NCBI GenBank assembly: GCA_963797055.1
Contig: CAWCOD010000016.1
Location: 27,736-91,735, forward strand
Length of the DNA: 64,000 bases
DNA from: an uncultured Holophagae bacterium
GTDB lineage: Bacteria; Acidobacteriota; Thermoanaerobaculia; Thermoanaerobaculales; Sulfomarinibacteraceae
Direction of reading: 5' to 3'
Shown here: positions 5,383 through 56,950 of the stretch, piece after piece
How the letters are laid out: every line of letters begins with the position of its first letter
Position numbering within the stretch: the stretch's first letter is position 1
Program-made: the position numbers and the translations under genes
The notes under the pieces: model-generated
Databases searched by the model: none
Seen by the model: the letters and a program-made list of their open reading frames with translations, nothing else
Told to the model about the DNA's origin: nothing

Positions 5383-7529
5383 GGCACCACCACCCGATCC
5401 TCGCTCTCGAGCTCGACTCCGGAGATCTTCCAGCGATCACCTTCAGGCCGCAAAGTGAGCATCCCGTTGTATGTGTTCTGCCGATGGTGGACGTGCTGCA
5501 GGTGGCGCACCCTGGCGACGACCATCCACCGGACGTCGTAGGCGAAGTCCTGCCCGGCCACAGCCACATCGAGCGGCTCGCCGATCTCGAGCACTCGGAC
5601 ATCACGCACGGTCACCTCAGCTCCCTCCCGCGTGCCCGCCGTCAGCCTTCGTCGACTGTCGAGATAGAGATCGTCCACGAGCTCTCCGGTGACGTTCCGC
5701 TCCAGAGTGTCGTAGAGCTCGTCCTCATCGGACAGATTGAAGGCGTGGTAGGTCTCGGACAGCACATTGGTCACCACCCGGCGGGCGCTCTCGCCCTCAG
5801 GGGCCCGAGGTTCGAAGAACGGATTGCTGACGACCACCGTGCCGAAGGGTAACAGGAGGAAGGCTGCGCCGAGCAGCAGCCAGTGCGTGACCAGTCGCCT
5901 CTGCTCCACCCCCAGCTGCTTCAGGACGCGCCCCCGCCGTGGCCAGAGAAGCACCGCAGCCACGACCAGCAGCATCGACAGCACCGGGATTCGGAGCAAC
6001 CCGAGCGCCGCCTCGGTGACCACCCGGTTGTCGAACCAAAGGCGGTAGTCGGCCAACCGCCACAGCACCGCCACCCCGCCGACCGCAACGCCCAACACAC
6101 GAATCCACCCGGTCATGGGCGTGATCGGGGAAATCCGTGACACCGACAGGCTCGCGTAGAGGAGGGACGTCGCCGTCAGCACCGCGCCGACCGCAACGCC
6201 AGTGGATTTGGACACATTCTCCACGAGCTCGAGCCCGGTGGACCACCCGTGGGCCACGACCGCGACCGGTACCACGACGAGCACCCACCGGGACGGGAGA
6301 GGCCGGCCAACGGCCAACGCCGCACCGAGCAGAAGCAATGTGCCGATCACGATCACTCCACCCAGGGGGATCGGGTTTCCAAAAAGACCCGGCACCAGTC
6401 CCGACAATGCCAGCATGCCGAATCCGGCCACGACCCATCGCCCGGCCTTGCCGGCCAAAAACAGGGTCGGCCCCAACACCAACGCCAAGAGCGCCAGCTC
6501 CACCGGCGACCTCTGCAGTCCGCCCATCAGCTGGCCAAGAGAAACAAACCGGGCCAGCACCATCCCGGTTGCCAGTCCACCGATCACGTATCCCATCGCC
6601 GTATCGGCCCGCGGCAGCCACCTGCCACCGGCCGCGAGGGTCAACACCGTCCGCAACTCCATCGCCACCAGCGAAATGACGACCAGACCGACGCCCACTC
6701 CCACACCGAAGGACACCAGCGCCACAAGCTGCTCGGCACTGGAGAGGCCGTCCGGCGGCAGAGCTTCGGGCCTTGCCCCTCCGTAGAGCAGGCCCAGGAG
6801 CAACGTGGCGGGCCACAGTGGCTGGAGCCAGCCACGCCAGCGCTCACCTCCCCCGGCCAGGGCCACCGCCGGGACCGCGGCGGAGATCAGAGTGAAGCTG
6901 TCGCGTACCAATGGATGCACCAGCAACCATCCGTTGCCGCCAAGCCACTGTGCCACCCCATGGGCCACGGCGAAGACAGCGGCACCGGTGAAAATATTCC
7001 GCCAACGGGCGCCACCGGCTACGACGACGAGGAGAAGCAACCAAAGCGGGAACTGGCGCAGGGTTCGGCGCATGGCCTCGACCGCTGCGTGTCCTCCCAA
7101 GGACGGCAGCGACGGCGGCAGCGGCACCAGAAAGCCGGGCCGCGATGGGCGCAAAATTCCCGTATATTCGCGCCCATCGAGGGTGGTGAGGGTGAAGGCC
7201 AGGTCAGTCTGAGTTCCCAGAAGACCCTCGATCAACACCGCCTCACCGGCCAACGACGGCGGGTCGCAAACGACCGTCCAGGCGGTGGTGTGGCCTACCG
7301 ACGAAACGCTGATGTCACGCTCGGTGATGTCGCTGCAAGTGGGTGGCAGCAGCGGCTCGGCGCGCAACTTGCGCCCCTCGACGATAGGAAGGGTGAAGAT
7401 CACCTCGTAGGTTCCCGGCTCGGTCTCCTCGAGGGTGAGTCGGGCCGGGAACGCAACGTCCGCGTTCACGGTTCCCGCGGCGGCCCAAAGCACCACCAAC
7501 GCCAGGATGACAGGCTTGAGCCTGGTCAT
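5367..7529 (-). CDS. Large polytopic membrane protein; N-terminal region HupE/UreJ-like (family-2 type), C-terminal soluble domain
   Basis: 720-aa ORF with a signal peptide. ARLTLEETEPGTYEVIFTLP...PPTC resembles the HupE_UreJ_2 N-terminal signature (from memory only). More than 10 predicted TM helices and a hydrophilic ~150-aa C-terminus. Overlaps the PPIase stop by 4 nt. Confidence 0.45.
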   Translation of the reverse strand: MTRLKPVILALVVLWAAAGTVNADVAFPARLTLEETEPGTYEVIFTLPIVEGRKLRAEPLLPPTCSDITERDISVSSVGHTTAWTVVCDPPSLAGEAVLIEGLLGTQTDLAFTLTTLDGREYTGILRPSRPGFLVPLPPSLPSLGGHAAVEAMRRTLRQFPLWLLLLVVVAGGARWRNIFTGAAVFAVAHGVAQWLGGNGWLLVHPLVRDSFTLISAAVPAVALAGGGERWRGWLQPLWPATLLLGLLYGGARPEALPPDGLSSAEQLVALVSFGVGVGVGLVVISLVAMELRTVLTLAAGGRWLPRADTAMGYVIGGLATGMVLARFVSLGQLMGGLQRSPVELALLALVLGPTLFLAGKAGRWVVAGFGMLALSGLVPGLFGNPIPLGGVIVIGTLLLLGAALAVGRPLPSRWVLVVVPVAVVAHGWSTGLELVENVSKSTGVAVGAVLTATSLLYASLSVSRISPITPMTGWIRVLGVAVGGVAVLWRLADYRLWFDNRVVTEAALGLLRIPVLSMLLVVAAVLLWPRRGRVLKQLGVEQRRLVTHWLLLGAAFLLLPFGTVVVSNPFFEPRAPEGESARRVVTNVLSETYHAFNLSDEDELYDTLERNVTGELVDDLYLDSRRRLTAGTREGAEVTVRDVRVLEIGEPLDVAVAGQDFAYDVRWMVVARVRHLQHVHHRQNTYNGMLTLRPEGDRWKISGVELESEDRVVVPWKPI

Positions 7530-8687: not shown

Positions 8688-8935
8688 GCGGTGCCAGGGC
8701 CATCGCGGTGCCAGGGCCGACACTATTGACTCCCAGCTTCGTCGCGGTGCCATCGTGGTGCCAGGGCCGACACTTCTGACAAGCAGTATTGAGCGACAAC
8801 ACAATTATCCCTGGAGAAGGCGAAGAAAGTGTCGGCCCTGGCACCGGGGGTCATATCTCCCCTTAGAAGGTGTCAGAGGTGTCGGTCCTGGCACCGATGG
8901 GAACGATGGAGTTTTAGGGCTCGGACCTCAGGACC
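8688..8935. repeat. PH element, right copy (inverted relative to 121-345)
   Basis: GTGCCAGGGCCGACACT at 8708-8724 and 8758-8775. Reverse copies at 8827-8844 and 8877-8894. The reverse complement aligns with 121-345 at roughly 85-90% by eye, with one extra hairpin unit. Confidence 0.85.
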
Positions 8936-8976
8936 ACCAAGCGGGTGGCGGATCTAGAATCTCGTATCTCGACGGA

Positions 8977-9840
8977 TCAGAACCGCGCCCGCACGAACAG
9001 GCTGAAATCGTTGATGTCGTAGCTGATGGCAGCGTTCAGCAACGTCCCGTTCTCCTCGGTTTCGATTCCGTCCCAATCGACATCGATGGTCGACAGATTA
9101 AAGGCACCACCAACCGAGAAATGATCCCCGATGAGGTACTCGATGCCCAGACGGCCGACCCACTGACCGCCCGAGATGTCCTCGATACTGACGTACAACC
9201 AGCCGAGCCCGGCTTGGAACCGCCAGTGTTCGGAAAACATCCGCCGGTACTCGAAGTAGAGGTAGGGCAGCGGACCGGTGCCCTTCACGTCGCTGGTGCC
9301 CTCGCCCTGCTCTTCGCCGCCCTCCAAACTCCAGTCCAGCGTTGCCGAAAGTTCCAAGACGCGCAGACCGAGCCCGAAGCCGGCCGCCCACCGCTCCTTG
9401 ACCCATGGGAAGTAGGTGTAATCGATGTAGAACTGGGTCACGTCGAAACCGAGATTGACCTCGGCGTCGATGGGGATCACCTCATCGCCCCACTTGATCT
9501 CCTCAAGGCTCTGCGAGGTGGAGTCACGGCTGATGTCCTGCCAGCGCACGCCCAACCTGTGCTTGCGGGCGATCTGCCACTCGAAGGCCAACGACGGAAC
9601 GGTCTTCGACGCATCGAGGTCCAGGTCGTCCTCGAAATTGAGGGTCGTTCCCCTGCCGAGCACCTCGGAGTCGAGTCGGATCTCGGTCGACATACCAACC
9701 CAGCTGGCCTCAACCCTGAAGTTGAACTTGTCGAGCAGCGGTTCATAATCGCGCTGCGCTTCGGCGGGCGTTGCACAGACGATCGTCACAATGATGAGCA
9801 ACGCCAAACCCAAGAATCGAGATGGCACACTGTTTGTCAT
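8977..9840 (-). CDS. Outer-membrane beta-barrel protein (family unassigned)
   Basis: ATG at 9840 after GGAAGGGG. Signal peptide ...IVCATPAEAQ, alternating beta pattern, C-terminal ...SLFVRARF. Confidence 0.6.
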   Translation of the reverse strand: MTNSVPSRFLGLALLIIVTIVCATPAEAQRDYEPLLDKFNFRVEASWVGMSTEIRLDSEVLGRGTTLNFEDDLDLDASKTVPSLAFEWQIARKHRLGVRWQDISRDSTSQSLEEIKWGDEVIPIDAEVNLGFDVTQFYIDYTYFPWVKERWAAGFGLGLRVLELSATLDWSLEGGEEQGEGTSDVKGTGPLPYLYFEYRRMFSEHWRFQAGLGWLYVSIEDISGGQWVGRLGIEYLIGDHFSVGGAFNLSTIDVDWDGIETEENGTLLNAAISYDINDFSLFVRARF

Positions 9841-11014: not shown

Positions 11015-11091
11015 GGCCACCAGACTACAGGACCTGTTCTTGTTCTCGCTCGAGTGGTTTCGAGCGGTTGGTACCGAACACCTGACCGTAA

Positions 11092-11145
11092 GTGCCAGGG
11101 CCGACACTGGTGACAATCTTCGCGCCAAAGTGTCGGCCCTGGCAC
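11092..11145. repeat. PH element, minimal single hairpin
   Basis: GTGCCAGGGCCGACACT (11092-11108), about 19-20 nt loop, AAGTGTCGGCCCTGGCAC (11128-11145). Perfect 17-bp stem. Confidence 0.85.
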
Positions 11146-11150
11146 CCTGA

Positions 11151-15859: not shown

Positions 15860-15999
15860 CGTTTGGATTCCCCTTTCGTCGGGTCACCGGCATTCTAGTC
15901 GATCGAGCCGGGTTGCGGGCAGTAGGCAGCCCCCCGCCGGCCCGGAGGAGCAGGTCTGGAAAGCGTAGAAAGGGCAGAAGGTGAAAAGAGGACCCACGA

Positions 16000-16038
16000 C
16001 CCAGCCCGAGCCCGAGCCCGTTATCGTTACCGTTACCG
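16000..16038. repeat. STR composite (CCGAGC)n-CCGTTAYCGTTACCG
   Basis: cccagcccgagcccgagcccgttatcgttaccgttaccg. Same composite at 36391-36430 and 39137-39166, and reverse-complemented at 20555-20604 and 46674-46712. Confidence 0.8.
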
Positions 16039-16087
16039 AAAGCCCGGACTCTGAACGAGGGGCTCGATTCCCCTGCCGCTTTTCGTT

Positions 16088-16203: not shown

Positions 16204-16280
16204 TTGTGGAGCAGGCCTCTGGCCTGCATTTGTCCATTCTATCGAGGCAAGAAATGCAGGCGGGACGGCTGCTCCACAAT
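16204..16280. repeat. TJ element (reverse orientation)
   Basis: TTGTGGAGCAGGCCTCTGGCCTGCA, 26 nt of spacer, TGCAGGCGGGACGGCTGCTCCACAAT. Outer arms are perfectly complementary. Confidence 0.85.
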
Positions 16281-16291
16281 GGCGACCAGGT

Positions 16292-16375
16292 CCCCCCGCC
16301 CGCCCAATTCGAAATTCCTAACCCCGACCATCCGACACGGCCCGCTATTCACCACTCGCTATTCACTATTCACTT
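16292..16375. repeat. GB-STR modules (C-box + AATTCGAAATT; CTATTCA array)
   Basis: CCCCCCGCCCGCCC followed by aattcgaaattcc. Then gctattcaccactcgctattcactattcactt. Confidence 0.7.
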
Positions 16376-16445
16376 CAAATCGAGTCGGCGGGGCGCCCCG
16401 CGTGCTAACCTTTCCGCCGCCGAGGAGACTGTGGACGTCAGAACC

Positions 16446-17717: not shown

Positions 17718-17834
17718 TTTGTAGCGCAGCCGTCTCGGCTGCATCTCCGGTGCTAAATGAACGTACGATTGCAGGCCAGAGGCCTGCGCTACAACCGTCG
17801 AATGTGTAGCGCAGCCGGGACGGCCGCACCACAA
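17718..17834. repeat. TJ element plus an extra half-arm
   Basis: TTTGTAGCGCAGCCGTCTCGGCTGCA, spacer, TTGCAGGCCAGAGGCCTGCGCTACAA (17769-17794). Then TGTGTAGCGCAGCCGGGACGGCCGCACCACAA. Confidence 0.85.
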
Positions 17835-19104: not shown

Positions 19105-20186
19105 GGCGTCGATCCTCCCACGCCAGGCGAGTCAGCGACCGATCCCGCTGATTGACCCGTGGGCTCACCACCGTGGTCGGCCCTGCCGTCCGCCGCCGCG
19201 CGTTGTTTCCGTGCCTGTCGTCCCACATAGGCCAGGGCGAGCCAACCCATGGGGAGGAGAATCCAGAAGGTGACGATGCGAAACGCCGCAACCCCCACCG
19301 CCAGATGTTCCTGCGGGACGCCCCGGAGACCCATGGACGCGCCGAGAAGGGCCTCGGTGGCCCCGATCCCACCGGGCACCCCGCTGCCCAGGCCGAGCAC
19401 GGCCGACCCCGGCGCCAGGAACAGCGAGTCCCACAGGCCCACGTCGCCCGGTAAATTGGAGGCGAGCATGAAGAAGGCGAGGCCGTGGGCGATCCATCCC
19501 GTGGACTGGAGCACGACGATGGCAAAGGTCGTCCAGCTCAGCCAAAAGCCCCGGGGTAGCTCCAACTTCGTGTCGGAAAGGAGCTTGAGGATGAGGTTGC
19601 CGAGAAACAGGCAGACAGCGACCACCGCGGCGCCGGCCGCGAGAGACAGGACGCCGTGGACCCGGTAGGCCACCAGCGCCGCGAACAACGCCAGGACCGA
19701 GATGGAGTCGAGGACGAAGACCACCGCTTCGGCTTTGAGACATTCCCCGAGAACCCCACGACCAAGACGAACCATCTCGTCCGGACGGATCAATCGGCCG
19801 AGCTGGGCCGGCAGCAGCAACCCCGCCTTGCCCGAGAGCCCGACGGCGGCGCCGGTTCGATCGAAGGCCTGGATCCCGAACCGCTGGTAGACCCACATCC
19901 AGGCGATGATCTCCACCGTCACGTCCATCAGCGCGAATACCAGCACCATGGGCAGAATACGGTAGTGCTCGCTCCAGTAGGCCTTCACCGCGGCGGCGTC
20001 ACCGTTGACGAACTCGCGGACGCCGTGGATGGACACCACAATCAGGATGCCGAAACCGACCCACCTGGCCCAACGTTGCCACTTCGAAACTGGTGCCGGC
20101 TTTCCGACGTTCGCAACACCCTCGGTCTGATCGTCGAGGGCTGGCGTGTCACTGGGGTCGACGGCGGGGGGCTTTGGTTCCGTCAC
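19101..20186 (-). CDS. Lysylphosphatidylglycerol-synthase-TM-like (flippase-like, UPF0104) membrane protein
   Basis: 361 aa, polytopic. GSGVPGGIGATEALL motif is typical of the LPG_synthase_TM family (from memory). Confidence 0.55.
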   Translation of the reverse strand: MTEPKPPAVDPSDTPALDDQTEGVANVGKPAPVSKWQRWARWVGFGILIVVSIHGVREFVNGDAAAVKAYWSEHYRILPMVLVFALMDVTVEIIAWMWVYQRFGIQAFDRTGAAVGLSGKAGLLLPAQLGRLIRPDEMVRLGRGVLGECLKAEAVVFVLDSISVLALFAALVAYRVHGVLSLAAGAAVVAVCLFLGNLILKLLSDTKLELPRGFWLSWTTFAIVVLQSTGWIAHGLAFFMLASNLPGDVGLWDSLFLAPGSAVLGLGSGVPGGIGATEALLGASMGLRGVPQEHLAVGVAAFRIVTFWILLPMGWLALAYVGRQARKQRAAADGRADHGGEPTGQSAGSVADSPGVGGSTP

Positions 20187-20247
20187 AGCTCACGGATCTT
20201 ACGGGTCGAGGCCGTCGAGAGTCAAACCGTCAGCCAGCCACACGGCC

Positions 20248-20346
20248 GATGCTGGATGCTGGATGCTGGATCTTGCTGGATGCTGGATGCTGGATGCTGG
20301 ATGCTGGATGCTGGATGCTGGATGCTGGATGCTGGATGCTGGATGC
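20248..20346. repeat. Heptanucleotide microsatellite (GATGCTG) x13 with one 10-nt variant unit
   Basis: Perfect GATGCTG units at 20248-20268 and 20279-20341, interrupted by gatcttgctg at 20269-20278. Confidence 0.9.
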
Positions 20347-20384
20347 ACCGAGATGGTGATGTGACCGACAAATGTCAACCCCTG

Positions 20385-20722
20385 CGGGTGGGGGACCTTA
20401 AATCTGGTACCCGGCTGGGTTGGGGCTGCTCCCTGTCCCCTGCTCCCTGCTCCCTGCTCCCTGTTCCTTGTTCCTTGTTCCTTGCTCCCTGCTCCCTGCT
20501 CCGTGCTCCTGGTAGGGCGGGCGGCGGTTCTTCGATCTTCGTTCTTTTTTTTCGACCGGCAACGGCAACGGTAACGGGCTCGGGCTCGGGCTCGGGCTCG
20601 GGGGAAGGCAGCGGATCTGGTATCCGGCATCCGGGTGGGCGGGGGATCCGGCTCCGCCTGCGGCTACGCCGTGACACGTCTCGCATCTTGCATCTTGAAT
20701 CTTGAATCGGGCGGGCGGGGGG
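20385..20722. repeat. Contiguous mosaic of GB-STR modules
   Basis: G-boxes at 20385-20395, 20413-20425, 20511-20527, 20631-20645 and 20709-20722. CTGCTCC/TTGTTCC array 20426-20509. TTCTTCGATCTTCG array 20528-20554. (GGCAAC)(GGGCTC)n 20555-20604. GCATCTTG/GAATCTTG array 20683-20708. Confidence 0.9.
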
Positions 20723-20745
20723 CCCGGCTGTGCGAAAATGTCCGA

Positions 20746-22731
<1,986 letters not shown>

Positions 22732-22842
22732 CGAAATATCGTCCCGCCAACACCTCTCGGAACCCGCTCACCACACGGATCGAATACCGACATCTCCCTT
22801 GATCGGCGGGAGATACGGATCAACGAGTCCTGGACGCGAAGG

Positions 22843-22858
22843 TGGTACGAGTTGTGCA
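22843..22858 (+). promoter_or_regulatory. Candidate sigma-54 (-24/-12) promoter
   Basis: TGGTACGAGTTGTGCA versus consensus TGGCACG-N4-TTGCW. Invariant GG-N10-GC spacing is kept with two mismatches. About 100 nt upstream of the DUF2092 ATG and directly downstream of the sigma-54 activator gene. Confidence 0.45.
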
Positions 22859-22956
22859 GTTTGTTCGCCGGGTTGAACTGTTCTCTGAACGAGGCCGAAC
22901 ACTGATCCCGACCGTGGCCGGGAGGCCCGGGCCGACACGACACACATAAGGAGGAA

Positions 22957-23763
22957 ATGATGATCAGGTCACATTCGCGATGTGCGCGAGGAATACCGTG
23001 GGTCAAGATCGCCATGGGCTTGGGGGCCCTCGCGGCAGTGACCGCCATCCTGCCGGCCCCAGCGTTCGGGCAGTTGGGGGGAGCGATCGACCACGACGCG
23101 CTGCAGATTCTCAAACGGATGACCGATTACCTCGGTGAGCAGCAGCGATTCGCCATGCATACCGAGAACAGCTACGAGGACGTGTTCGAGAACGGGCAGA
23201 AGCTCCAGTTTCATTTCTCATCCGACGTCGTGGTCCAACGACCGAACAAGCTCCGCGCGGAGCAGTCCGATGGGATACACCGTCAAATCTTCCTCTACGA
23301 CGGCGAGACGCTCTCCGTTCACGACGGCCAGCAGGATTTCTATGCCGCCGTTGCCGCTCCGGACGACATAGACGGCCTTTTACACTTCGCTCGTGATGCG
23401 CTCGATCTGGTGCCTCCCACGGGCGACATGGTCTTTTCCAACGCCTTCGAGTTGCTGACGGCCGGCATCACGTCGGGTGTCGTGGTCGGCAAGACGGTCA
23501 TCGATGGCGTCAGCTGCGATCACCTCGCCTTCACCACTCCGGTGGTGGACTGGCAGGTCTGGGTCGCGGACGGAGACCAGCCGCTCCCCTACAAGTACGT
23601 CTTGACCACACGGGACGACCCCGCACAACCCCAGTTCATCACGATGATCACCAATTGGAATACCGCACCGGAGATCGAGGACGGGTTGTTCACATTTGAA
23701 CCACCGGCCACCGCGATGGAGATTGACTTCGTCCGCCTTGATGCCGGCACGACGGCTCCCTGA
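22957..23763 (+). CDS. DUF2092-like periplasmic (LolA-fold-like) protein
   Basis: AAGGAGG RBS and a signal peptide. ALQILKRMTDYLGEQQRF...GQKLQFHFSSDVVVQRPNKLRAE...LYDGETLSV matches my recollection of DUF2092. Confidence 0.65.
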   Translation: MMIRSHSRCARGIPWVKIAMGLGALAAVTAILPAPAFGQLGGAIDHDALQILKRMTDYLGEQQRFAMHTENSYEDVFENGQKLQFHFSSDVVVQRPNKLRAEQSDGIHRQIFLYDGETLSVHDGQQDFYAAVAAPDDIDGLLHFARDALDLVPPTGDMVFSNAFELLTAGITSGVVVGKTVIDGVSCDHLAFTTPVVDWQVWVADGDQPLPYKYVLTTRDDPAQPQFITMITNWNTAPEIEDGLFTFEPPATAMEIDFVRLDAGTTAP

Positions 23764-23782
23764 CCGGGAACGGAGGCACATC

Positions 23783-24175
23783 ATGAAACATCTCATCGGG
23801 ATTCTCGGGGCCGCAACAGTGTTCGCCCTGCTCGTTTTCTTCGACGTACTCTCGCTCGGTCTGGTGCCTGAGGCTGAGGCCATCGCAGGCGTCCGACGCC
23901 GGACAGCGCGCCGGACCGCCGTCGTGGTTGGCAGCACCTCTGCGGCGGCCGCCGCCTCCGCATCCGCCGCCTCTCAACAGCAGGCTGCTCCGGCGCCAGC
24001 ACCAGCACCAGCGCCAGCGCCCGCCGCCGCCCCGGCGCCCGCACCGACCGCGATGGTTGCCTCACTGCCGGAGGGTTGCGTCTCCGACGGCGCGGTCTTC
24101 CAGTGCGGCAACGTCTACTACAAGCCCTACATGTCCGGCAATCAGATCGTGTATGGCGTGGTGCCTGGGCCGTAG
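23783..24175 (+). CDS. Small secreted protein with Ala/Pro-rich linker and Cys-containing C-terminal domain (hypothetical)
   Basis: GGAGG RBS and ATG at 23783. Signal/TM, (AP)n linker, C-terminal CVSDGAVFQCGNVYYKPYMSGNQIVYGVV. Confidence 0.55.
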   Translation: MKHLIGILGAATVFALLVFFDVLSLGLVPEAEAIAGVRRRTARRTAVVVGSTSAAAAASASAASQQQAAPAPAPAPAPAPAAAPAPAPTAMVASLPEGCVSDGAVFQCGNVYYKPYMSGNQIVYGVVPGP

Positions 24176-24204
24176 CGACCGGTGTCAGGGATTCTGGGGC
24201 GACC

Positions 24205-24762
24205 ATGAGCGTTCGCGACAAGGTGGTCGCAGAGGTCAAGGAGCTGGCGCTGGCCGGCCTCTACTTCTTCGTATGGATCGGCATGCTGGTGGCGATCAAG
24301 AAGCTCATCCTCGCCGAGTACCAGATCGAGTTCGCGGGGCTGTCGGCCGCACTCATCGGCGCGCTCGTGCTCGCCAAGGTGGTTCTGATCCTCGAGAATG
24401 TCCCGCTCTCGGCCCTGACCCGGGACCGGCCGGCCTGGGTGGAGGTCGTCACGCGTACGGCGCTGTACGGCGCCGGCGTTGTGGTTGTGCTGCTCTTGGA
24501 GAAGGGCTTCGAGGGCCGCCACGAGTACGGGGGCTTCTGGCAGTCGCTGAAGTCACTGTTCCACCACGCGGACATCGAACACGTGTGGGCCAACGCGATC
24601 TGCATCTCCGGAGCCCTGCTCGGTTACAACGCGCTGTCGGTCATCCGCAGACATCTCGGAGAGGGCGGTTTGATCGCGATGTTTCGCGAGCCGCTTCCGG
24701 AGGAATCGAATCCGGAGCAGAACAATGAAAACGTCGAGCAGTCGACCAACGGCACGGTATAA
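24205..24762 (+). CDS. Integral membrane protein (hypothetical)
   Basis: 185 aa with about 4 hydrophobic helices. 29 nt after the upstream stop, on the same strand. Confidence 0.5.
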   Translation: MSVRDKVVAEVKELALAGLYFFVWIGMLVAIKKLILAEYQIEFAGLSAALIGALVLAKVVLILENVPLSALTRDRPAWVEVVTRTALYGAGVVVVLLLEKGFEGRHEYGGFWQSLKSLFHHADIEHVWANAICISGALLGYNALSVIRRHLGEGGLIAMFREPLPEESNPEQNNENVEQSTNGTV

Positions 24763-24863
24763 CGCATTCTGCGATCGAGATCTCGGCCACTCGAATGGAC
24801 TGTTTCGAGGTCTCCCGAGCAGCTGCTTCGACACCCGGACCTGACGGAAAGGAGATCTGCGAC

Positions 24864-25220
24864 ATGCTGACCCTCAGGCTCCACATGGAGTTTGCACAAA
24901 AAGCGTGTGGTGAAGCGGCCGCGGTGTTGCGATCGCTGGTCGGGCCGGTTCGTGCCGAGCCCGGCTGCCGGTCGACGCGCTTCTCGGTTGGACCGGCCGA
25001 CCGGTGCGAGCTCACGTGGGTGGAGGAGTGGAGCAACACCGAGGATTTCGAGCGCCACCTTCGGACGCAGGCTTTCCGACAGATTCTGGCGGTCATCGAC
25101 CTCGCCGCCGCGCCGCCGGTGGTCGAGATCGACGATGTCTCTTCTCGACGCGGCTTCGACCTCGTCGAGGAGATCCTCGGAATCAACGCGGTGGAGCAGA
25201 CGGAACTTGGGACCAGATGA
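24864..25220 (+). CDS. Antibiotic-biosynthesis-monooxygenase (ABM)-like small protein
   Basis: AAAGGAG RBS. ...GCRSTRFSVGPADRCELTWVEEWSNTEDFERHLRTQAFRQIL resembles the ABM ferredoxin-like fold signature. Confidence 0.5.
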   Translation: MLTLRLHMEFAQKACGEAAAVLRSLVGPVRAEPGCRSTRFSVGPADRCELTWVEEWSNTEDFERHLRTQAFRQILAVIDLAAAPPVVEIDDVSSRRGFDLVEEILGINAVEQTELGTR

Positions 25221-25260
25221 GGAGACCACGATCATGGTGACGGAAAGAGGGAGATCAGAC

Positions 25261-25683
25261 ATGAGAGCATCGGGGCCTTTGGGCCATCCGGTATTGGCCG
25301 GAATTTTGACGGTGGCGTTTGCCCTTTCGGCCCAACTGGTGGATGCCGACGACCTCGCCGGATCCGATCGATTCCTTTGCGCTGCGGTCCAGGCGGCGGT
25401 GTGCTCCATCGAAGGCGATTGTGCCACCGACATTCCGTGGAATCTCAACATCCCGAAGTTCGTCGAGGTCGACCTCGATGCCAGGCGTCTCAACACCACG
25501 GCCGCGAGCGGGGAAAACCGGACGACGCCCATCGAGCACCTGAGCCGCGCCGACGGGACCATCGCGTTTCACGGCTTCGAGATGGGCCGGGCCTTCAGCT
25601 GGGTCATCGCGGAGCAGATCGAGAATTTCAAGAAGGCCTTCAGCGTCTGCCTCGAGGCCAAGAAATACATGGTCAAGTATTAA
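25261..25683 (+). CDS. Secreted hypothetical protein
   Basis: AGAGGGAG RBS. Signal peptide ...ILTVAFALSAQ. 140 aa with no recognised motif. Confidence 0.45.
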   Translation: MRASGPLGHPVLAGILTVAFALSAQLVDADDLAGSDRFLCAAVQAAVCSIEGDCATDIPWNLNIPKFVEVDLDARRLNTTAASGENRTTPIEHLSRADGTIAFHGFEMGRAFSWVIAEQIENFKKAFSVCLEAKKYMVKY

Positions 25684-25751
25684 AGATAACGAGTCGAGAC
25701 TTTGGGAATCACAGACTTCATCGAAATACCGTTTGTCCAAGGAGGAGATAC

Positions 25752-28259
25752 ATGAAGATCATCATAACCCTCACGGCGGTTGCGCTCGTGCTCGGGCTTG
25801 CCTTCGTCCCATCGATCTCGGCCCAAGAGATTACGGGCACGCCCGGTTCTCCCAGCGCCACCACCAACATCGACGGCAAACAGCTACCGCCGCCGCCCGA
25901 CACGACGTTTGGCGGCACGATCGAACGCAATGCCATCGATTCAGCACCCTACTGGCCACCCCGGGTCGCGCCACCGAAGGGCGCGCCGAACGTTCTTCTG
26001 ATCATGACCGATGACGCGGGCTACGGCGTGTCGGGCACCTTCGGGGGCGTCATCCCTACGCCGGCCATGGACCGCATCGCTGACATGGGTCTTCGCTATA
26101 CCCACTTCCACTCGACGGCCGTGTGTTCGCCGACCCGGGCGGCGCTCATCACCGGGCGAAACCACCACCAGATGGGAACGGGTTCGATACCGGAACTGTC
26201 GACCGGCTACCCCGGCTACAACGCCCTCATGACCAAGGACAAAGCCACCGTTGCCAGAATCCTCAAGGGCCACGGCTACGTGACGTCCTGGTTCGGCAAG
26301 AATCACAACACGCCGGATCTCCAGGTCAGCAAGATCGGGCCGTACGATCAGTGGCCACTCGGACTCGGTTTCGACTACTTTTACGGGTTCATGGGAGGGG
26401 ATACCAGTCAGTGGCAGCCGGGCAACCTGGTCCGCAACACCACCTATATCTACCCATTTGATGACGAACCCGGATGGAACCTGGTCACGGCAATGGCGGA
26501 TGATGCGATTCAATACATGAATACCGTTGACGCTCTGAATCCGGATCAGCCCTTCTTCATCTACTATGCGCCCGGCGCCACCCATGCGCCCCATCACCCG
26601 ACCCCGGAGTGGATCGAAAAGATCAGCGACATGCACCTTTTCGACGAGGGCTGGCACACGCTGCGTGAAACCATCTTCGCCAACCAGAAGAAGCTCGGGG
26701 TCATACCACCGGATGCCAAGCTGACGCCCTGGCCCGAGGAACACATCAAGAGATGGGAGCAGCTCACCGACACCGAAAAGAAGCTGTTCATCAAACAGGT
26801 GGATGTCTTCGCCGCCTACGTGGCCTACACCGACTATGAGATCGGTCGCGTGATCCAGGCGGTGGAAGACCTGGGCAGGCTCGACAACACCCTGATCATC
26901 TACATCACCGGCGACAACGGCACCAGCGCGGAAGGCGGGCCGACCGGCACGCCGAACGAGGTCGCAGCGGTCCAGGGCGCGCATCTGCCGGTGGAGGCGC
27001 AGATGCAGTACTACGATGTGTGGGGCTCGGACAGAACCTACCCCCACATGTCGATCGGCTGGACCTGGGCCTTCGACACGCCCTTCAAGTGGACCAAGAT
27101 GGTGAGCTCGCACTTCGGCGGCACCAAACAGGGCATGGCGATTGCCTGGCCCAAGGTGATCAAGGACAAGGGTGGCATCCGCAACCAGTTCCATCATGTC
27201 ATCGACATCGCGCCGACGATTCTCGAGGCGACCGGGATTCCACTGCCCGAGGTGGTGGATGGCATCAAACAGATCCCAATGGATGGCGTCAGCATGGTCT
27301 ACACCTTCGACGAGAAGAACGCGGATGCGCCCTCGACGCACACGACCCAGTACTTCGAGATGATCGGCGACCACGCGATCTACCACGATGGATGGATGCT
27401 CAGCACCAAGGTCGTGCGTCTGCCCTGGGACAACAGCGGGACGGCCGACAAGCATCCTGACACCTGGCCGTGGGAGCTCTACGACCTCAGCAAGGACTGG
27501 ACGCAGTACGACGACGTGTCGGCTCAGTATCCCGACAAGGTCAAGGAGCTGGAGGAGCTGTTCTGGCAGGAAGCGGAGCGGAACCAGGTGCTGCCGATGG
27601 ATTCCACAACCTTCACCCGTTCGATCATGCCGCGGCCCAACCTCTCTGCCGGCCGCACCGTGTTCACCTATTCCGGGGAAGTGACGGGAACGCCCAACGG
27701 CAATGCGCCGAACGTCCTCGCCTCGTCGTACAACATCAAGGCCGAGGTCGAGATCCCCAAGGGCGGTGCGGAGGGCATGCTTGTGACCCATGGAGGCCGC
27801 TTCACCGGCTACGGGTTCTATGTGCTCGAGGGCAAGCCGGTCTACACCTGGAACCTCATGGGCCTCACGTCGATCAAGTGGGAAGGCCCGGATGTGCTGG
27901 CACCCGGCAAGCACACGCTCGAGTTCGACTTCAAGTACGACGGTCTTGGCGCCGAAACGCTGATGTACGGGAGCCCCAGCGGCCTGGGCCAGAGCGGAAC
28001 CGGAACCCTCAAGGTGGACGGTAATATCGTCGCAACGAACAAGATGGAGAAAACCGTCCCGATGCTCATGCAGTGGTGCGAAAGCTTCGACGTGGGGGCT
28101 GACACCGGCTCGCCGGTGGCCGACGAGGATTATCAGCCACCCTTCCGGTTTACCGGCAAACTCGACAAGCTGACCCTGACCATCGATCGGCCGGAGCTTT
28201 CGGAAGAGGACATCAAGACGCTCCAGGCCGCCATGCACAACAACCCGGCGAGCGACTAG
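25752..28259 (+). CDS. Arylsulfatase (Cys-type sulfatase family)
   Basis: AAGGAGG RBS and a signal peptide. NVLLIMTDDAGYG and the CSPTRAALITGRNHH formylglycine motif (C-x-P-x-R). 835 aa. Confidence 0.85.
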   Translation: MKIIITLTAVALVLGLAFVPSISAQEITGTPGSPSATTNIDGKQLPPPPDTTFGGTIERNAIDSAPYWPPRVAPPKGAPNVLLIMTDDAGYGVSGTFGGVIPTPAMDRIADMGLRYTHFHSTAVCSPTRAALITGRNHHQMGTGSIPELSTGYPGYNALMTKDKATVARILKGHGYVTSWFGKNHNTPDLQVSKIGPYDQWPLGLGFDYFYGFMGGDTSQWQPGNLVRNTTYIYPFDDEPGWNLVTAMADDAIQYMNTVDALNPDQPFFIYYAPGATHAPHHPTPEWIEKISDMHLFDEGWHTLRETIFANQKKLGVIPPDAKLTPWPEEHIKRWEQLTDTEKKLFIKQVDVFAAYVAYTDYEIGRVIQAVEDLGRLDNTLIIYITGDNGTSAEGGPTGTPNEVAAVQGAHLPVEAQMQYYDVWGSDRTYPHMSIGWTWAFDTPFKWTKMVSSHFGGTKQGMAIAWPKVIKDKGGIRNQFHHVIDIAPTILEATGIPLPEVVDGIKQIPMDGVSMVYTFDEKNADAPSTHTTQYFEMIGDHAIYHDGWMLSTKVVRLPWDNSGTADKHPDTWPWELYDLSKDWTQYDDVSAQYPDKVKELEELFWQEAERNQVLPMDSTTFTRSIMPRPNLSAGRTVFTYSGEVTGTPNGNAPNVLASSYNIKAEVEIPKGGAEGMLVTHGGRFTGYGFYVLEGKPVYTWNLMGLTSIKWEGPDVLAPGKHTLEFDFKYDGLGAETLMYGSPSGLGQSGTGTLKVDGNIVATNKMEKTVPMLMQWCESFDVGADTGSPVADEDYQPPFRFTGKLDKLTLTIDRPELSEEDIKTLQAAMHNNPASD

Positions 28260-28360
28260 CTCGATGAAACACTCGTGGCGATGTGCGCCGGGGGGTTTAT
28301 GAATTGGAGACTGGAACGACTGGCTGAACGACCAACCGAGTTGGCAACGGGAGGTGGGAG

Positions 28361-29620
28361 GTGACAAGCGGGAGTTGGTGGGATGTGTCGTTCGTGGCGG
28401 CCAGGGTGAAACCGGCACGACCAATCCGCCGAGCTGCCGCGATTGCCCTTGCGTTGATTCTGACGATGGGGGTCGCGGCTCCAGGCCTCCATGCTCAGGA
28501 GGATGAGGAGCCGGCGGCCGGCGATCCTCCGGCTGCCGAGGCCACCGAGCCCGAGACCGGCGGTCAAGAGGAGGTCAAGACGAAGAAGGGCCCGCCCTTC
28601 ATCGCCATCCCCATCTTCATCACCGAGCCGGCGGTGGGCTACGGTCTCGGCGGCGCCGTCGGCTACTTCCACAAGAAGAAGCAGCACGCCGACTCCGGTG
28701 GAGGATCAACCGCCCCGGTCCTTACTGCCGACACCGCGTCGAAGGTCGGTAAACAGAAAAAGGTCCCGCCGACCATCACCGGGTTCGCCGCGGCATACAC
28801 CCAAGACGGAACATGGGGCGCCGGTTTCGCCCACACCGCCTCGTGGAAGAAGGACAGGATCCGTTACAAGGGCGCCATCGGGTACGCCCACATCGTCTCC
28901 ACCTTCTACTTCAGCGACCAGCCCTTCGACTTCAAGCTCGACACCGGTCTTTTCTACCAGGACATCAAGTTCCGGATCAAATCCAGCGATATTTTTGTCG
29001 GTGGCAAGCTCGTCTACCTCGCTCCCGATCTGCTGTTCGACGAGGACGCCGGCAGTATCCCGGTGGAGAACGAGACCAAGCTCAACGACTTCGGACTGGC
29101 GTTTCAGGGCGAGTACGACGGTCGGGACAACACGATGACCCCGAATCGGGGCCAGTACGTCGAGTTCGTGGCGTGGAAACACCTCGAGGCGCTGGGTGGG
29201 GACACCGACTACTGGAAGATCAGTCTCATGGTGGATTCGTTCAGTGAAATGCTGAACAAGAAGCTCGTGCTCGGTCTCCATCTCGATCTCAACACCGCGG
29301 GTGGCGACCCTCCCCTGTGGGGCTACCCCTGGGTCACCATGCGCGGGGTTCCCGCCCTCCGGTATCAGAACGAGAGCACAGCGGTGGCCGAGACCGAGCT
29401 CCGATGGAATCTCGCCGCTCGCTGGGCCGCGCTCGGATTTATTGGTGTCGCCGGGACCCGCGGTGACGTTCCGATCTTCGAGGACGAGAGCGGGATTGTC
29501 GCCGGTGGTGTCGGCGGGCGCTTCCTCTTCCGGCCCCAGGACAGCCTGTGGGTTGGGATCGACGTCGCCACGGGACCCGAAGACTACGTCCTGTACGTCG
29601 TGGCCGGCCACAAGTGGTGA
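28361..29620 (+). CDS. Omp85/surface-antigen-like outer-membrane beta-barrel without obvious POTRA repeats
   Basis: Signal peptide ...GVAAPGLHAQ. C-terminal GGVGGRFLFRP...VGIDVATGPEDYVLYVVAGHKW resembles the Omp85 barrel terminus. The start could instead be GTG 28406. Confidence 0.5.
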   Translation: MTSGSWWDVSFVAARVKPARPIRRAAAIALALILTMGVAAPGLHAQEDEEPAAGDPPAAEATEPETGGQEEVKTKKGPPFIAIPIFITEPAVGYGLGGAVGYFHKKKQHADSGGGSTAPVLTADTASKVGKQKKVPPTITGFAAAYTQDGTWGAGFAHTASWKKDRIRYKGAIGYAHIVSTFYFSDQPFDFKLDTGLFYQDIKFRIKSSDIFVGGKLVYLAPDLLFDEDAGSIPVENETKLNDFGLAFQGEYDGRDNTMTPNRGQYVEFVAWKHLEALGGDTDYWKISLMVDSFSEMLNKKLVLGLHLDLNTAGGDPPLWGYPWVTMRGVPALRYQNESTAVAETELRWNLAARWAALGFIGVAGTRGDVPIFEDESGIVAGGVGGRFLFRPQDSLWVGIDVATGPEDYVLYVVAGHKW

Positions 29621-29689
29621 TCTTCTTCTGACGGTCTCCACAGCGTCTGGCCCTCTCATGGGTGTCAGGTTGGTACTAAAAATTAACGA

Positions 29690-29718
29690 TTGCACGGTTA
29701 CCGTGAAAGCATTATAGT
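29690..29718 (+). promoter_or_regulatory. Candidate sigma-70 promoter of higBA
   Basis: TTGCAC (29690-29695), 17-nt spacer, TATAGT (29713-29718). 20 nt upstream of the AAGAGG RBS and GTG 29739. Confidence 0.5.
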
Positions 29719-29738
29719 CAAATAAGAGGTCATCTGCC

Positions 29739-30032
29739 GTGATCGTCTCATTCGGTGATAAGGCAACTGAAGCCGTGTTTCACGGGGCACCAGCCCAACT
29801 ACTGAAACGGTTTCCTGCCGACGTCCTGAAGAGAGCGAATCAGAAACTCGACTACCTCAACGGCGCTTCCGACCTGACTGATCTTGAAGCCCCGCCAGGC
29901 AACCGTCTCGAATTTTTGAAAGGCGATCTGAAGGGACTACACAGCATTCGGGTCAACGATCAGTGGAGAATCGTGTTTCGGTGGCATGGTTCTGATGCCC
30001 ATGAGGTCAGACTGGCGGACTACCACCGGTAA
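29739..30032 (+). CDS. higB: Type II toxin, HigB-like (RelE/ParE superfamily, plasmid-maintenance killer type)
   Basis: 97 aa with a GTG start. ...LEFLKGDLKGLHSIRVNDQWRIVFRWHGSDAHEVRLADYH is a typical HigB C-terminus. Followed at 11 nt by the antitoxin. Confidence 0.8.
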   Translation: MIVSFGDKATEAVFHGAPAQLLKRFPADVLKRANQKLDYLNGASDLTDLEAPPGNRLEFLKGDLKGLHSIRVNDQWRIVFRWHGSDAHEVRLADYHR

Positions 30033-30043
30033 AGGAGAATTCC

Positions 30044-30331
30044 ATGATTCCTAAGAACCGTATTCCGACCCACCCTGGAGAGATTCTCCTTGAGGAATTC
30101 CTGGCTCCAATGGAACTCTCGCAGGTCGAGTTCGCCGCTCACCTTGGAGTCCCAGTGCAGCGAATTAACGAGATCGTCCGCGGGAAACGCGGCATCACGC
30201 CTGAAACCGCTTGGTTGTTCTCCCAGGCATTCGGCACGACTCCACAGCTCTGGATCAACCTCCAGACGAACTATGACCTCGCGCGGAATAAGCCCGACCG
30301 AACGGTGCGCCAGCTCAGGAAAGCGGGGTAG
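30044..30331 (+). CDS. higA: Type II antitoxin HigA (XRE-type HTH)
   Basis: 95 aa. HPGEILLEEFLAPMELSQVEFAAHLGVPVQRINEIVRGKRGITPETA is the canonical HigA HTH. Confidence 0.85.
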   Translation: MIPKNRIPTHPGEILLEEFLAPMELSQVEFAAHLGVPVQRINEIVRGKRGITPETAWLFSQAFGTTPQLWINLQTNYDLARNKPDRTVRQLRKAG

Positions 30332-30403
30332 GACGTGAGCCCTAACCCCCGCGGGTTCGGGACGTGCGTGCCAGGGCAGCGAGGCGTGGTGAGCCTCTGT
30401 TCG

Positions 30404-36323: not shown

Positions 36324-36430
36324 CCGCCGCCCTCCCACCCATCCGGTGTGGAAGGTGTGGAAAGTGTGGAAAGTGTGGAGAGAACTCCATCCCGAGCCCG
36401 AGCCCGAGCCCGAGCCCGTTATCGTTACCG
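36324..36430. repeat. GB-STR composite: C-box + (GGTGTGGAA)n + (CCGAGC)n-CCGTTATCGTTACCG
   Basis: CCGCCGCCCTCCCACCCATCCGG, ggtgtggaaggtgtggaaagtgtggaaagtgtggagag, cccgagcccgagcccgagcccgagcccgttatcgttaccg. Same module order as 39099-39166. Confidence 0.85.
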
Positions 36431-36622: not shown

Positions 36623-38080
36623 GTGAAACTCCAAGACCCGTCTTTGTTAAAGACCCAGGCCTACGTCGACGGCGAATGGACCGACGCGGACGGTGGCGAG
36701 ACCTTTGACGTCACCAATCCAGCCACCGGAGAAATCGTCGCCACAGTCGCCAAGTGCGGAGCGGCGGAAACGCGGCGCGCCATCGAGGCCGCGGAGCAGG
36801 CGCAGTTCGAGTGGCGTCAGAGGGCGGCAACCGAGCGCTCCAACCTCCTCCGCCGCTGGTTCGATCTGATGATGGAGGCCCAAGAGGATCTGGCACGGAT
36901 CCTGACGGCCGAGCAGGGCAAGCCACTGGTCGAGGCGCGCGGCGAGATCGCCTACGGTGCCAGCTTCATCGAGTGGTTCGCCGAGGAAGCCAAGCGTATC
37001 TACGGCGATGTCATCCCTCCGCCAGCCAACGACCGCCGCATTGTCGTCATCAAACAACCGGTGGGTGTCGTTGCCTGCATCACGCCCTGGAACTTCCCCA
37101 ATGCCATGCTCACGCGGAAGGTCGGTGCGGCATTGGCCGCGGGTTGCACGACGGTGTGCAAGCCGGCAAGCTCGACGCCGCTGTCGGCCTTCGCCATGGT
37201 GGAGCTGGCCGAGCGCGCCGGCATCCCCCCAGGGGTCATCAACGTGCTGGCCGGCTACACTGGCGCCATCGGCGACGAGCTGACCTCGAATCCCATTGTC
37301 CGCAAGCTCACCTTCACCGGATCCACCGAGGTCGGCAAGAAGCTGGTTGCCGACTGTGCCGGGACCATGAAGCGCACCTCCATGGAGCTCGGCGGCAACG
37401 CACCCTTTATCGTCTTCGACGACGCTGACCTTGATCAGGCGGTGCAGGCAACCCTCGCCACAAAGTACCGCAACGCCGGTCAGACCTGCGTCTGCGCCAA
37501 CCGAATCCTGGTCCAGGACAGCGTCATGGAGGAGTACTCAAAGAAGCTCGTGGGAGAGGTCGAGAAATTCAAGCTCGGCAACGGCGCTGACGAGGACGTG
37601 ACCATGGGCCCGCTGATCGACGACACGGCGGTCGAAACCGTGTGCAGCCTCATCGATGAAGCGGTATCCAAGGGTGCCAAGGTCATGCTCGGTGGCGGCC
37701 GCTCCGACTTGGGCGGGAACTTCGTGGAACCCACCATCCTCTCCGACGTGACGTCGGACATGCGTGTATTTCGCGAGGAGATCTTCGGGCCGGTCTCACC
37801 GTTGTTTTCGTTTCGTACCGAAGGCGAGGCCATCGCCATGGCCAACGACACCGAATTCGGCCTCGCGGCCTATTTCTGTGCCCGCGACGTGGGCCGGATC
37901 TGGCGGGTGGCGGAGGGCCTGGAGTACGGCATCGTCGGCATCAACGAGGGCATCATCTCCAACCCAGCAGCGCCCTTCGGCGGCATGAAGGAGTCGGGCA
38001 ACGGACGCGAGGGTTCCAAGTACGGTCTCGACGACTACCTGGAAGTCAAGTACCTCTGTATCGGCGGCATCGACCGCTGA
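36623..38080 (+). CDS. gabD: NAD(P)-dependent succinate-semialdehyde dehydrogenase
   Basis: 485 aa with a GTG start after AGGAGG. ALDH motifs ITPWNFP, FTGSTEVGK, ELGGNAP, GQTCVCANR and EEIFGPV. N-terminus ...AYVDGEWTDADGGETFDVTNPATGE is typical of GabD. Confidence 0.8.
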   Translation: MKLQDPSLLKTQAYVDGEWTDADGGETFDVTNPATGEIVATVAKCGAAETRRAIEAAEQAQFEWRQRAATERSNLLRRWFDLMMEAQEDLARILTAEQGKPLVEARGEIAYGASFIEWFAEEAKRIYGDVIPPPANDRRIVVIKQPVGVVACITPWNFPNAMLTRKVGAALAAGCTTVCKPASSTPLSAFAMVELAERAGIPPGVINVLAGYTGAIGDELTSNPIVRKLTFTGSTEVGKKLVADCAGTMKRTSMELGGNAPFIVFDDADLDQAVQATLATKYRNAGQTCVCANRILVQDSVMEEYSKKLVGEVEKFKLGNGADEDVTMGPLIDDTAVETVCSLIDEAVSKGAKVMLGGGRSDLGGNFVEPTILSDVTSDMRVFREEIFGPVSPLFSFRTEGEAIAMANDTEFGLAAYFCARDVGRIWRVAEGLEYGIVGINEGIISNPAAPFGGMKESGNGREGSKYGLDDYLEVKYLCIGGIDR

Positions 38081-39079: not shown

Positions 39080-39280
39080 CATTGCGAATTGCGGATTTCC
39101 CGTCCCACCCGGTGTAGAAGGTGTAGAGGATGTGGATCCGAGCCCGAGCCCGTTGCCGTTGCCGTTTTCGGCTTTCTCATCCCTGGATTCGAGGTGGACG
39201 CAATCGTCCGTGAGACCCAACAACGTTCAACATTCTCCCCCACCCAGATCCTTCGACTCGCTTCGCTCGCTCAGGATGAC
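39080..39280. repeat. GB-STR composite plus a GTCATCCTGAGC-family half element
   Basis: C-box CCCGTCCCACCCGG, ggtgtagaaggtgtagaggatgtgga, tccgagcccgagcccgttgccgttgccgtt, caacaacgttcaacattc. Then CCCACCCAGATCCTTCGACTCGCTTCGCTCGCTCAGGATGAC (39238-39280). Confidence 0.8.
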
Positions 39281-40681: not shown

Positions 40682-40706
40682 GCAATTGGCAGTGACCCCC
40701 GCCCAC

Positions 40707-40742
40707 CCGAGGAGCGCGTTGGAAGAAAATCGCGTTCCTCGG
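40707..40742 (+). terminator. Stem-loop just downstream of the LssY-like gene (possible terminator, no U-tract)
   Basis: CCGAGGAGCGCG, 12-nt loop, CGCGTTCCTCGG (11 of 12 bp pair). Begins 26 nt after the stop. Confidence 0.25.
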
Positions 40743-40786
40743 AGGTGCCTGGCATCCTCACGTCACATCGAGCCAAACGAGAGGAA

Positions 40787-40896
40787 TTTGTGGAGCGGCC
40801 GTCTCGGCTGCATCGTCGCCATTGTGGAGCAGCCGTCTCGGCTGCATTTCCGGCCTCGATTGAAGGCACGATGCAGGCCGGAGGCCTGCGCTACAA
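40787..40896. repeat. TJ element with duplicated left arm
   Basis: TTTGTGGAGCGGCCGTCTCGGCTGCA, ATTGTGGAGCAGCCGTCTCGGCTGCA, spacer TTTCCGGCCTCGATTGAAGGCACGA, TGCAGGCCGGAGGCCTGCGCTACAA. Confidence 0.85.
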
Positions 40897-40974
40897 CCCA
40901 CAACCTGCCACCTGACGGGCGACGGATCTCTGTGATGAGCTTTCTCTGCGTGAGCCGTGTGATCTGTGGATCTT

Positions 40975-41144: not shown

Positions 41145-41209
41145 CAGGCCCGAAGATCGACTATCATGGTCCGCGGTGCCGATCCGAACGACGCACCTGG
41201 AGGAATGAC

Positions 41210-56874: not shown

Positions 56875-56950
56875 CACCAGACCTGGTTTGCGGCCGGGGC
56901 GGCCGCTCCACAATTGTCCTCCGGAGGGGGGCGAGTCTATTCCTCATCGA

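Follow-up and report, generated by a model that had tools for sequence, protein, structure and literature searches.

Composite intergenic repeats of an uncultured Acidobacteriota bacterium may be segments of a mosaic family of G-box-punctuated microsatellite modules

Three composite repeats lying at distant intergenic sites of an uncultured Acidobacteriota genome may be segments of a clade-specific mosaic family of intergenic repeats, in which strings of short modules bounded by G-rich boxes would have been copied into unrelated gaps and would afterward have changed in length by slippage. We regard this overall account as a roughly even call. The data covered 64 kb of the source genome (hereafter, the window) and ~250 kb of relatives. 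The window is chromosomal DNA of the ordinary kind with a GC content of 0.63, and the records of the relatives carry the names Holophagae, Thermoanaerobaculales, and Acidobacteria.

Nearly all intergenic gaps of the window held short tandem arrays beside G-rich boxes (GGGYGGGYGGGG; G-boxes) or their C-rich complements (C-boxes). A module consists of a G-box and a same-strand tandem array of 6–9-nt units, mostly with a period of 7. Period-7 arrays numbered 29 in 10.0 kb of intergenic DNA compared to 6 in 54 kb of coding DNA, and boxes occurred at 4.2 per kb and 1.3 per kb, respectively. A strict box was located within 10 nt of 18 of the 38 arrays, whereas random placement gave 9.7 ± 2.7 (maximum 18 in 1000 trials). 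Furthermore, the relative strand of box and array was fixed in 45 of 47 adjacencies of families F1–F5 (window and relatives' loci L004–L006 and L013), indicating that the module is a single oriented entity and not a chance neighborhood. Approximately 13 unit families recurred in the window, namely F1 (GAATTCA/AAATTGA), F2 (AATCTGC), F3 (TCTTYGT), F4 (CTGCTCC/CTTGTTC), F5 (ATCTTGN), F6 (AACGTTN), F7 (AACTTTC), F8 (CGGYAA-CGGGCT), F9 (GGTGTGGAA), and further families with the units CCCTCTCA, GATGCTG, CTATTCA, and ATCCGGC. The coordinates of the composites and of their neighboring parts are listed in Table 1.

Table 1. Positions of composite repeats and associated features in the window.
Feature	Position	Strand	Composition or remark
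(GATGCTG)×13.7 array	20248–20346		Left end of locus 1; without adjoining box; TRF
F4 array (CTGCTCC/CTTGTTC)×12	20426–20509	+	GGGTTGGGG just before; homologous to 41073–41130
Composite 2 copy A	20511–20604	+	F3 (TTCTTCGA..) then F8 (CGGCAA)3(CGGGCT)5 at 20528–20604
G-box GGGCGGGCGGCGG	20515–20527	+	
GGAAGGCA linker + (ATCCGGC)2	20605–20632	+	Also before core in L004(−)
Composite 1 copy A	20631–20722	+	Sequence, blastn
Opening G-box GGGTGGGCGGGGG, composite 1 copy A	20633–20645	+	
F5 array (ATCTTGM)×3.4–4	20682–20708	+	TRF, sequence
Closing G-box, composite 1 copy A	20709–20722	+	23 nt upstream of start codon at 20746
Repeat block, 473 nt	40682–41154		Missing from syntenic L013
Composite 1 copy B	40975–41062	+	G-box, core, F5 array, G-box
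F4 array (CCTGCTC)×8 + closing G-box GGGCGGGTGGGCGG	41073–41144	+	TRF, blastn
Composite 2 copy B	46633–46712	+	G-box GGGTGGGTGG, F3, F8
Composite 3 copy A	36324–36430	−	C-box, F9 (GGTGTGGAA)×4, reversed F8 (CCCGAG)×5-CCGTTATCGTTACC
Composite 3 copy B	39098–39166	−	
Composite 3 third copy, degenerate	~15950–16040	−	

Composite 1 had been described, in an earlier sequence-only reading, as a nearly identical 37-nt core between two G-boxes at two distant loci. Both copies and the near-identity of the core were recovered, but the core measures 36 nt and is itself made of two imperfect copies of a 12-mer (GGCTCCGCCTGC/GGCTMCGCCGTG). The layout is a G-box, ATCCGGCTCCGCCTGCGGCT(A/C)CGCCGTGACA(C/A)GTCT, (ATCTTGN)n, and a G-box. 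The two cores (20646–20681 and 40990–41025) matched at 34 of 36 positions, and the core pattern, allowing up to 3 mismatches, occurred exactly twice in the window and 0 times in 100 shuffles. Copies A and B were 91.5% identical over 82 nt by blastn (20630–20711 versus 40974–41055). The G-box can pair with CTCCGCCTGC of the core as a 10-bp imperfect hairpin, the only pairing in composites 1 and 2.

Composite 2 was present at both of its proposed sites; its junction, ACCGGCAACGRCAAYGGTAACGGGCTC, occurred exactly 2 times in the window compared to 0 expected, and the copies shared 93.8% identity over 64 nt (blastn, 20528–20590 versus 46646–46709). Composite 3 was found at the two sites expected and at a third, degenerate one. 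In reverse complement, its (CCCGAG)n-CCGTTRYCGTT part corresponds to the CGGYAA/CGGGCT module of composite 2. Between homologous arrays, the copy number of CGGGCT was 4.7, 2.7, 4.7, 2.5, and 3.0, whereas that of ATCTTGN was 3.4 and 4.3 in the window and 4.3–8.6 in other genomes (TRF). The proposed drift in copy number beside matching cores was thus seen for both units (2.5–4.7 and 3.4–8.6 copies), as slippage would give. A further repeat, ..CCCACCCAGATCCTYCGACT..GCTCGCTCAGGATGACA, had 6 copies in the window (2341, 16087, 16182, 30562, 39265, and 41305) and flanks composite 3 on the right at two loci, so that the conserved order there is one element longer. Two paralogous secreted proteins of ~153 aa without a Pfam match, encoded at 41212–41671 (+) and 46739–47200 (−), each adjoin a composite locus, which is upstream of the gene in one case and downstream in the other.

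The flanks of composite copies were unrelated, and the similarity ended at the boxes. Three block pairs were 91–94% identical, all ending at boxes; within locus 1, 20426–20525 matched 41073–41145, that is, an array plus its closing box (blastn). The unrelated genes neighboring the composite loci include those for a sigma-54 activator, an LssY_C protein, an AI-2E transporter, and ALDH. The proposal that the order of modules is conserved held inside each composite, but between loci the modules were shuffled: the F4 (CTGCTCC) module precedes the core in locus 1 and follows it in locus 2, and F8 is partnered by F3 in composite 2 and by F9 in composite 3. Similarly, of the view that elements were copied as units and then drifted by slippage, the homologous copies at unrelated sites stood, but discrete elements with ends of their own did not, since neither terminal inverted repeats nor a palindrome was present and the single empty site showed no target-site duplication. 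As judged from these alignments, the copying unit would be variable strings of smaller box-plus-array modules, which recombine.

We then considered other genomes. The core search, conducted with one genome per species and requiring an exact match to 23 nt, gave six loci, as did the metagenome scan for the core; the copies considered are those that keep this stretch intact and not the more diverged ones. Alignment of the core copies placed composite 1 in other species and other contexts: with a 36/36 core, it was present in no fewer than two further species-level genomes, each time in an unrelated context. L004 (two copies) and L005 had the full composite with the core at 36/36, and L006, which comes from the same MAG as L005, had a G-box and a 32/36 core without the ATCTTGN array. 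The module density of L004, L005, and L006 equaled that of the window. In the six-way alignment, the conserved block began at the opening box, the flanks were unrelated, and a closing G-box ended the block in five of six copies, L004(−) being without one. Both window copy A and L004(−) had an upstream GGGAAGGCA-(ATCCGGC)n module. The conservation of the core flanks that were not selected for (GGATCCGG.. and ..AAGTC) is real.

The core also occurred alone in GC-richer genomes, either in REP-like hairpin loops (L008 and L009) or with CGGCTTC-type repeats (L010–L012). At L008 5300–5370 and L009 3500–3560, it is inside the loop (GTGCGGGC..core..GCCCGCAC), suggesting that the 36-nt core may insert by itself into hairpin loops. 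No match to the core was found in phages, plasmids, and viral contigs. L023 had the order G-box-(ATCTCGT)n-G-box-(CTGCTCA)n-G-box. An inverted F3 pair, (F3 reverse)(C-box)-19 nt-(G-box)(F3), was observed at L006 5516–5700, centered in a REPIN-like doublet, and arrays of GAGAAGGG, CCCTCTCA, and CCTTCTCC were present at window 49445–49556 and at L006 1135–1380; GAGAAGGG equals the SpoIIIE recognition sequence of B. subtilis, probably by coincidence. L004 (CAVVYS010000018.1) is titled "uncultured Bacteroidaceae bacterium", a label that looks wrong given its GC content of 0.63 and its possession of the repeat system of Holophagae MAGs.

A syntenic relative was then compared. The ALDH gene (36623–38080) had relatives at 82–88% protein identity, L013 among them, and L013 was syntenic with window 16.2–20.2 kb and 30.7–46.4 kb. 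From the LssY_C-domain gene to the 153-aa protein gene, L013 proceeds from the stop codon directly to GATCGTTTATCATGGTCCGCGG (GATCGTTTATCATGG at the junction), whereas the window has 473 nt extra. An empty site, for which a check in related genomes had been suggested, was therefore found, as L013 is without the whole block (40682–41154) holding composite 1 copy B, a difference that may reflect either insertion or deletion. Several elements are piled up in the block, namely a C-box, REP-like hairpins, composite 1 copy B, and an F4 module; no duplication was detected at its borders relative to the L013 empty site, and that empty site has no G-box.

Other gaps of L013 had the same anchors and different arrays. 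Upstream of the LPG-synthase-like gene, the two sequences align up to GTCAAACCG, which holds the sole promoter-like site; beyond it, the window has (GATGCTG)n and the remainder of locus 1, whereas L013 has G-box-(AACTTTC)n-G-box-(AATCTGC)n. In the DUF4136–ALDH gap, alignment extends up to GGGCATSGTARC..ATCC and is followed by composite 3 in the window versus (GAAAATT)n in L013. Two gene ends had AATTCT-type arrays in the window versus AGTTCT-type arrays in L013. These observations indicate that sites are reused, that their content turns over, and that the frequencies of unit variants differ between genomes. L013 also had a 200-bp element in 3 copies within 10 kb (1431–1670, 7073–7283, and 8925–9211), which is MITE-like, with inverted (AGTTCTK)n ends, and is placed directly at gene ends. 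Orthologues of the sigma-54 activator (71–73% identity) had no G-box modules in their upstream gaps, and locus 1 is therefore untraceable in them; modules were absent from the L018–L021 genome. Overall, L004–L006, L013, and L023 had a high module load, and L015, L018, and L024–L026 had a low one. L013 is without a ~10-kb block (window 20746–30400) between the LPG-synthase-like and DegT genes, which holds genes for the sigma-54 activator, DUF2092, a sulfatase, and an Omp85-like protein and ends with two small adjacent ORFs (~29740–30332) that, judging from the sequence, have the look of a HigB/HigA-type toxin–antitoxin pair.

The modules were compared with known repeat systems, of which E. coli BIMEs and heptanucleotide repeat families come nearest. 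BIMEs of E. coli and other enterobacteria are intergenic mosaics that combine a few short motifs in orders that recur. They are positioned behind genes and between the genes of operons, certain types being tandemly amplified with variable copy number, and they are non-coding and genome-specific, consisting of palindromic REP units in alternating orientation with fixed linkers. The present modules are likewise intergenic mosaics built from few motifs in recurring order, positioned after genes, variable in tandem copy number, non-coding, and genome-specific. However, they are composed of non-palindromic G-boxes and 6–9-nt microsatellites, mostly in direct orientation. REP/REPIN sequences, which are mobilized by RAYT (TnpA-REP), are headed by GTAG and contain an imperfect palindrome of ~20–40 nt able to form a hairpin. 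The modules resemble them as short, GC-rich, well-conserved intergenic repeats that are dispersed, clustered in hot spots, and species-specific, but the G-box modules have neither the GTAG head nor the imperfect palindrome. Composites 1 and 2 folded with z from +1.2 to −1.6 relative to shuffles, showing no REP palindrome. Only the minus strand of composite 3 was an outlier among the composites on both strands (z = −3.3), through GGGCUC self-pairing.

A separate GC-rich, GTAG/GTGG-headed hairpin (TTGTRGHGCRG-SCGTCYCGSC-YGC) occurred in 23 window copies compared to 0.03 expected, mostly as REPIN-like inverted doublets ~52 nt apart, with a G-box or C-box 10–13 nt after 4 of 8. Its sites include 16204–16279, 17719–17834, 40788–40896, 46437–46625, 49304–49411, 52673–52748, 56799–56913, and 62206–62281. 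Another dispersed repeat, GTGTCGGCCCTGGCACC, had 12 copies compared to 0.5 expected, clustered and in both orientations (163–329, 8690–8895, and 11091–11146).

MITEs such as Correia/NEMIS and ERIC are small and non-autonomous, with terminal inverted repeats and target-site duplications. The composites are similarly small, abundant, non-autonomous, and nested, and differ in presence between relatives; unlike MITEs, they are without terminal inverted repeats, both ends being same-strand G-boxes, and no target-site duplication was seen at the 473-nt block. CRISPR arrays have repeats of 23–55 nt, unique spacers of similar length, and usually cas genes; this assignment was rejected, as the boxes are 9–17 nt, the "spacers" are low-complexity arrays common to loci, and Pfam scans gave no cas domain. 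The G-box as a canonical G-quadruplex (four tracts of at least three G, loops of 1–7 nt) was also rejected, because the number of G3 tracts per box is one to three; by contrast, the motif is present in the (GGGCTC)n and (GGGAGCA)n arrays. No Rfam match was obtained for the whole window at the gathering threshold or for locus 1 at E ≤ 1.

Heptameric simple sequence repeats (SSRs) have been described in cyanobacteria, as GGGAATC in Xanthomonas and GGGGAYT in Nostoc (PMC4692102), as TAACTGA in Beggiatoaceae (PMC4679880), and as heptanucleotide multicopy elements in Geobacter metallireducens (PMC2700814). As with these, the present repeats have 7-nt tandem units that are strongly intergenic, often near gene ends, without a linked transposase, and variable in copy number and sequence between related genomes. 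Head-to-tail units of 1–9 nt with varying copy number were found in the arrays only and not in the boxes, the core, or the order of modules (TRF). Moreover, genomes with heptanucleotide SSRs have one or few unit types versus ~13 families here, and their repeats are without a punctuating box, a fixed box–array polarity, or multi-module composites with non-repetitive cores. Literature searches, including searches with the unit sequences, found no description of a box-punctuated module arrangement.

In the overall account that we propose, box-bounded strings of one to several modules would be copied non-reciprocally into unrelated gaps, the outcome being visible in the alignments and the process deduced from it; thereafter, arrays would gain or lose units by replication slippage. 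The most likely step would be recombination or template switching anchored in shared G-boxes, which give ~13 nt of homology at each module border and could stall replication. This anchoring is favored, with less confidence than the overall account. Under it, copied segments would begin and end at boxes, modules would reassort between loci, terminal inverted repeats and target duplications would be absent, and repeats would pile up on repeats. However, since each module has a box at its start, box-ended segments would arise under any model. The first arrival at the L013 empty site, at least, would have needed no box, since that site has none, and imperfect homology of only ~13 nt is little for RecA-type recombination. 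Passive recombination accounts less well for the near-identical cores of different species (36/36 and 35/36, with a 23-nt match required) than does a selected function or a cis-site that an enzyme needs.

A stronger reading, which we put forward tentatively and consider clearly less probable, is that the modules constitute a clade-wide cassette-like system, in which oriented G-box and microsatellite modules would be actively copied and homogenized within each genome by a dedicated mechanism and would have a role at gene borders. Within this reading, the mechanism would be either a box-specific enzyme or template switching primed by G-boxes or hairpins. If it is true, the conserved 36-nt element and the gene-tied polarity would imply a gene-border role and not junk.

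It is also conceivable, although unlikely, that modules and composites are non-autonomous mobile elements moved in trans by a dedicated enzyme whose gene lies elsewhere in the genome, such as a RAYT/IS200-like HUH transposase or a nuclease recognizing the G-box or the G-box:core hairpin. The strong conservation of core and boxes across species, the possible 10-bp imperfect hairpin, the co-resident REP/REPIN-like family with its 23 copies and boxes 10–13 nt after 4 of 8 doublets, the core within hairpin loops of L008 and L009, and the box-free empty site of L013 all point this way. Nevertheless, the modules have no GTAG head, terminal inverted repeats, or target-site duplication at the empty site, the folding of composites 1 and 2 does not surpass that of shuffles, and the copied segments vary in extent without fixed ends. 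Pfam scans of 40 proteins in the 64-kb window, comprising housekeeping and envelope genes, revealed no transposase, RAYT, or recombinase; the trans-acting recombinase or TnpA(REP)-like gene postulated earlier thus has no candidate within 64 kb, and the TnpA(REP) link better fits the separate GTAG-hairpin family.

The position of modules at gene borders bears on a further explanation, namely that they are cis elements kept by selection, whose spread and conservation reflect function and not selfish copying; candidates are 3′-end or insulator elements, arrays of protein- or RNA-binding sites, and G4 or i-motif structures. Module strings occupy dispensable intergenic DNA, immediately behind stop codons and a short way upstream of promoters. 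F1 arrays abutted a stop codon in 8 of 14 cases, always in the order stop, TTGAATT-type array, and C-box (mRNA sense), and among the boxes nearest a gene border, those pointing outward prevailed by 24:4 in the window and by 16:7 at other loci with gene calls. These biases and the conservation of the core across species are consistent with a selected function, and stop-codon-proximal heptamer repeats have been reported for Xanthomonas and Nostoc (PMC4692102). We find this explanation quite improbable, however, because modules occur alike in convergent, divergent, and tandem gaps, orthologous gaps of relatives hold other modules or none, and no Rfam family or stable fold was found. Scanning of locus 1 for promoters and terminators revealed no terminator-like site and one promoter-like site, which is within the conserved anchor and outside the repeats; G-boxes alone are not canonical G4 motifs. 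Selected function alone also leaves the shared non-repetitive junctions unexplained, and copying would be needed as well; neither it nor a dedicated enzyme precludes copying.

A nested-palindrome model of the gaps was dropped: polarity switched from C to G 7 times and from G to C 0 times within window gaps, but the ratio was 5:5 at other loci with crude gene masks, so that only the weaker border-polarity trend stays. The longest ORF of the heptosyltransferase-like gene (start 16206) crosses a REPIN-like doublet, a C-box, and (CTATTCA)n arrays (16204–16430), and its true start is probably near 16430, as the L013 orthologue has 413 aa versus 488 aa here.

Independent origin in place, by slippage beside G-rich pause sites with the resemblance being convergence, is very improbable. 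A single array at 59383–59452 does grade from AATCTGC to AATTCGT to AATTCAA, and heptanucleotide SSRs are over-represented in many bacteria, as cited in PMC4692102; against this, the 36-nt core and junctions such as TTTTTCGACCGGCAACG are common to loci and genomes with 0 expected, and the ~40 heptamer arrays can be sorted into ~10 unit families whose polarity is fixed. Finally, the composites are almost certainly not remains of larger segmental duplications, the case that would have undercut the earlier proposal of independent copies, since cores and junctions are shared beyond chance while flanks and neighboring genes are unrelated, locus 1 (20150–20800) matched the window only in module-sized stretches of 25–82 nt (blastn), and no homology into flanking unique sequence or genes was found at the composite loci.

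The account of box-bounded copying and slippage, if true genome-wide, would mean that this lineage gives much of its intergenic DNA to a previously unreported repeat grammar, in which polar, box-punctuated microsatellite modules reassort and are common to several species. Gene calling is affected, since arrays overlap stop codons and inflate ORF starts, as at 16206, and assembly is probably affected too. The modules would form a non-palindromic counterpart to REP/BIME systems and a natural case of short-repeat spread without an obvious transposase, and they would provide strain-level markers for these uncultured Acidobacteriota.
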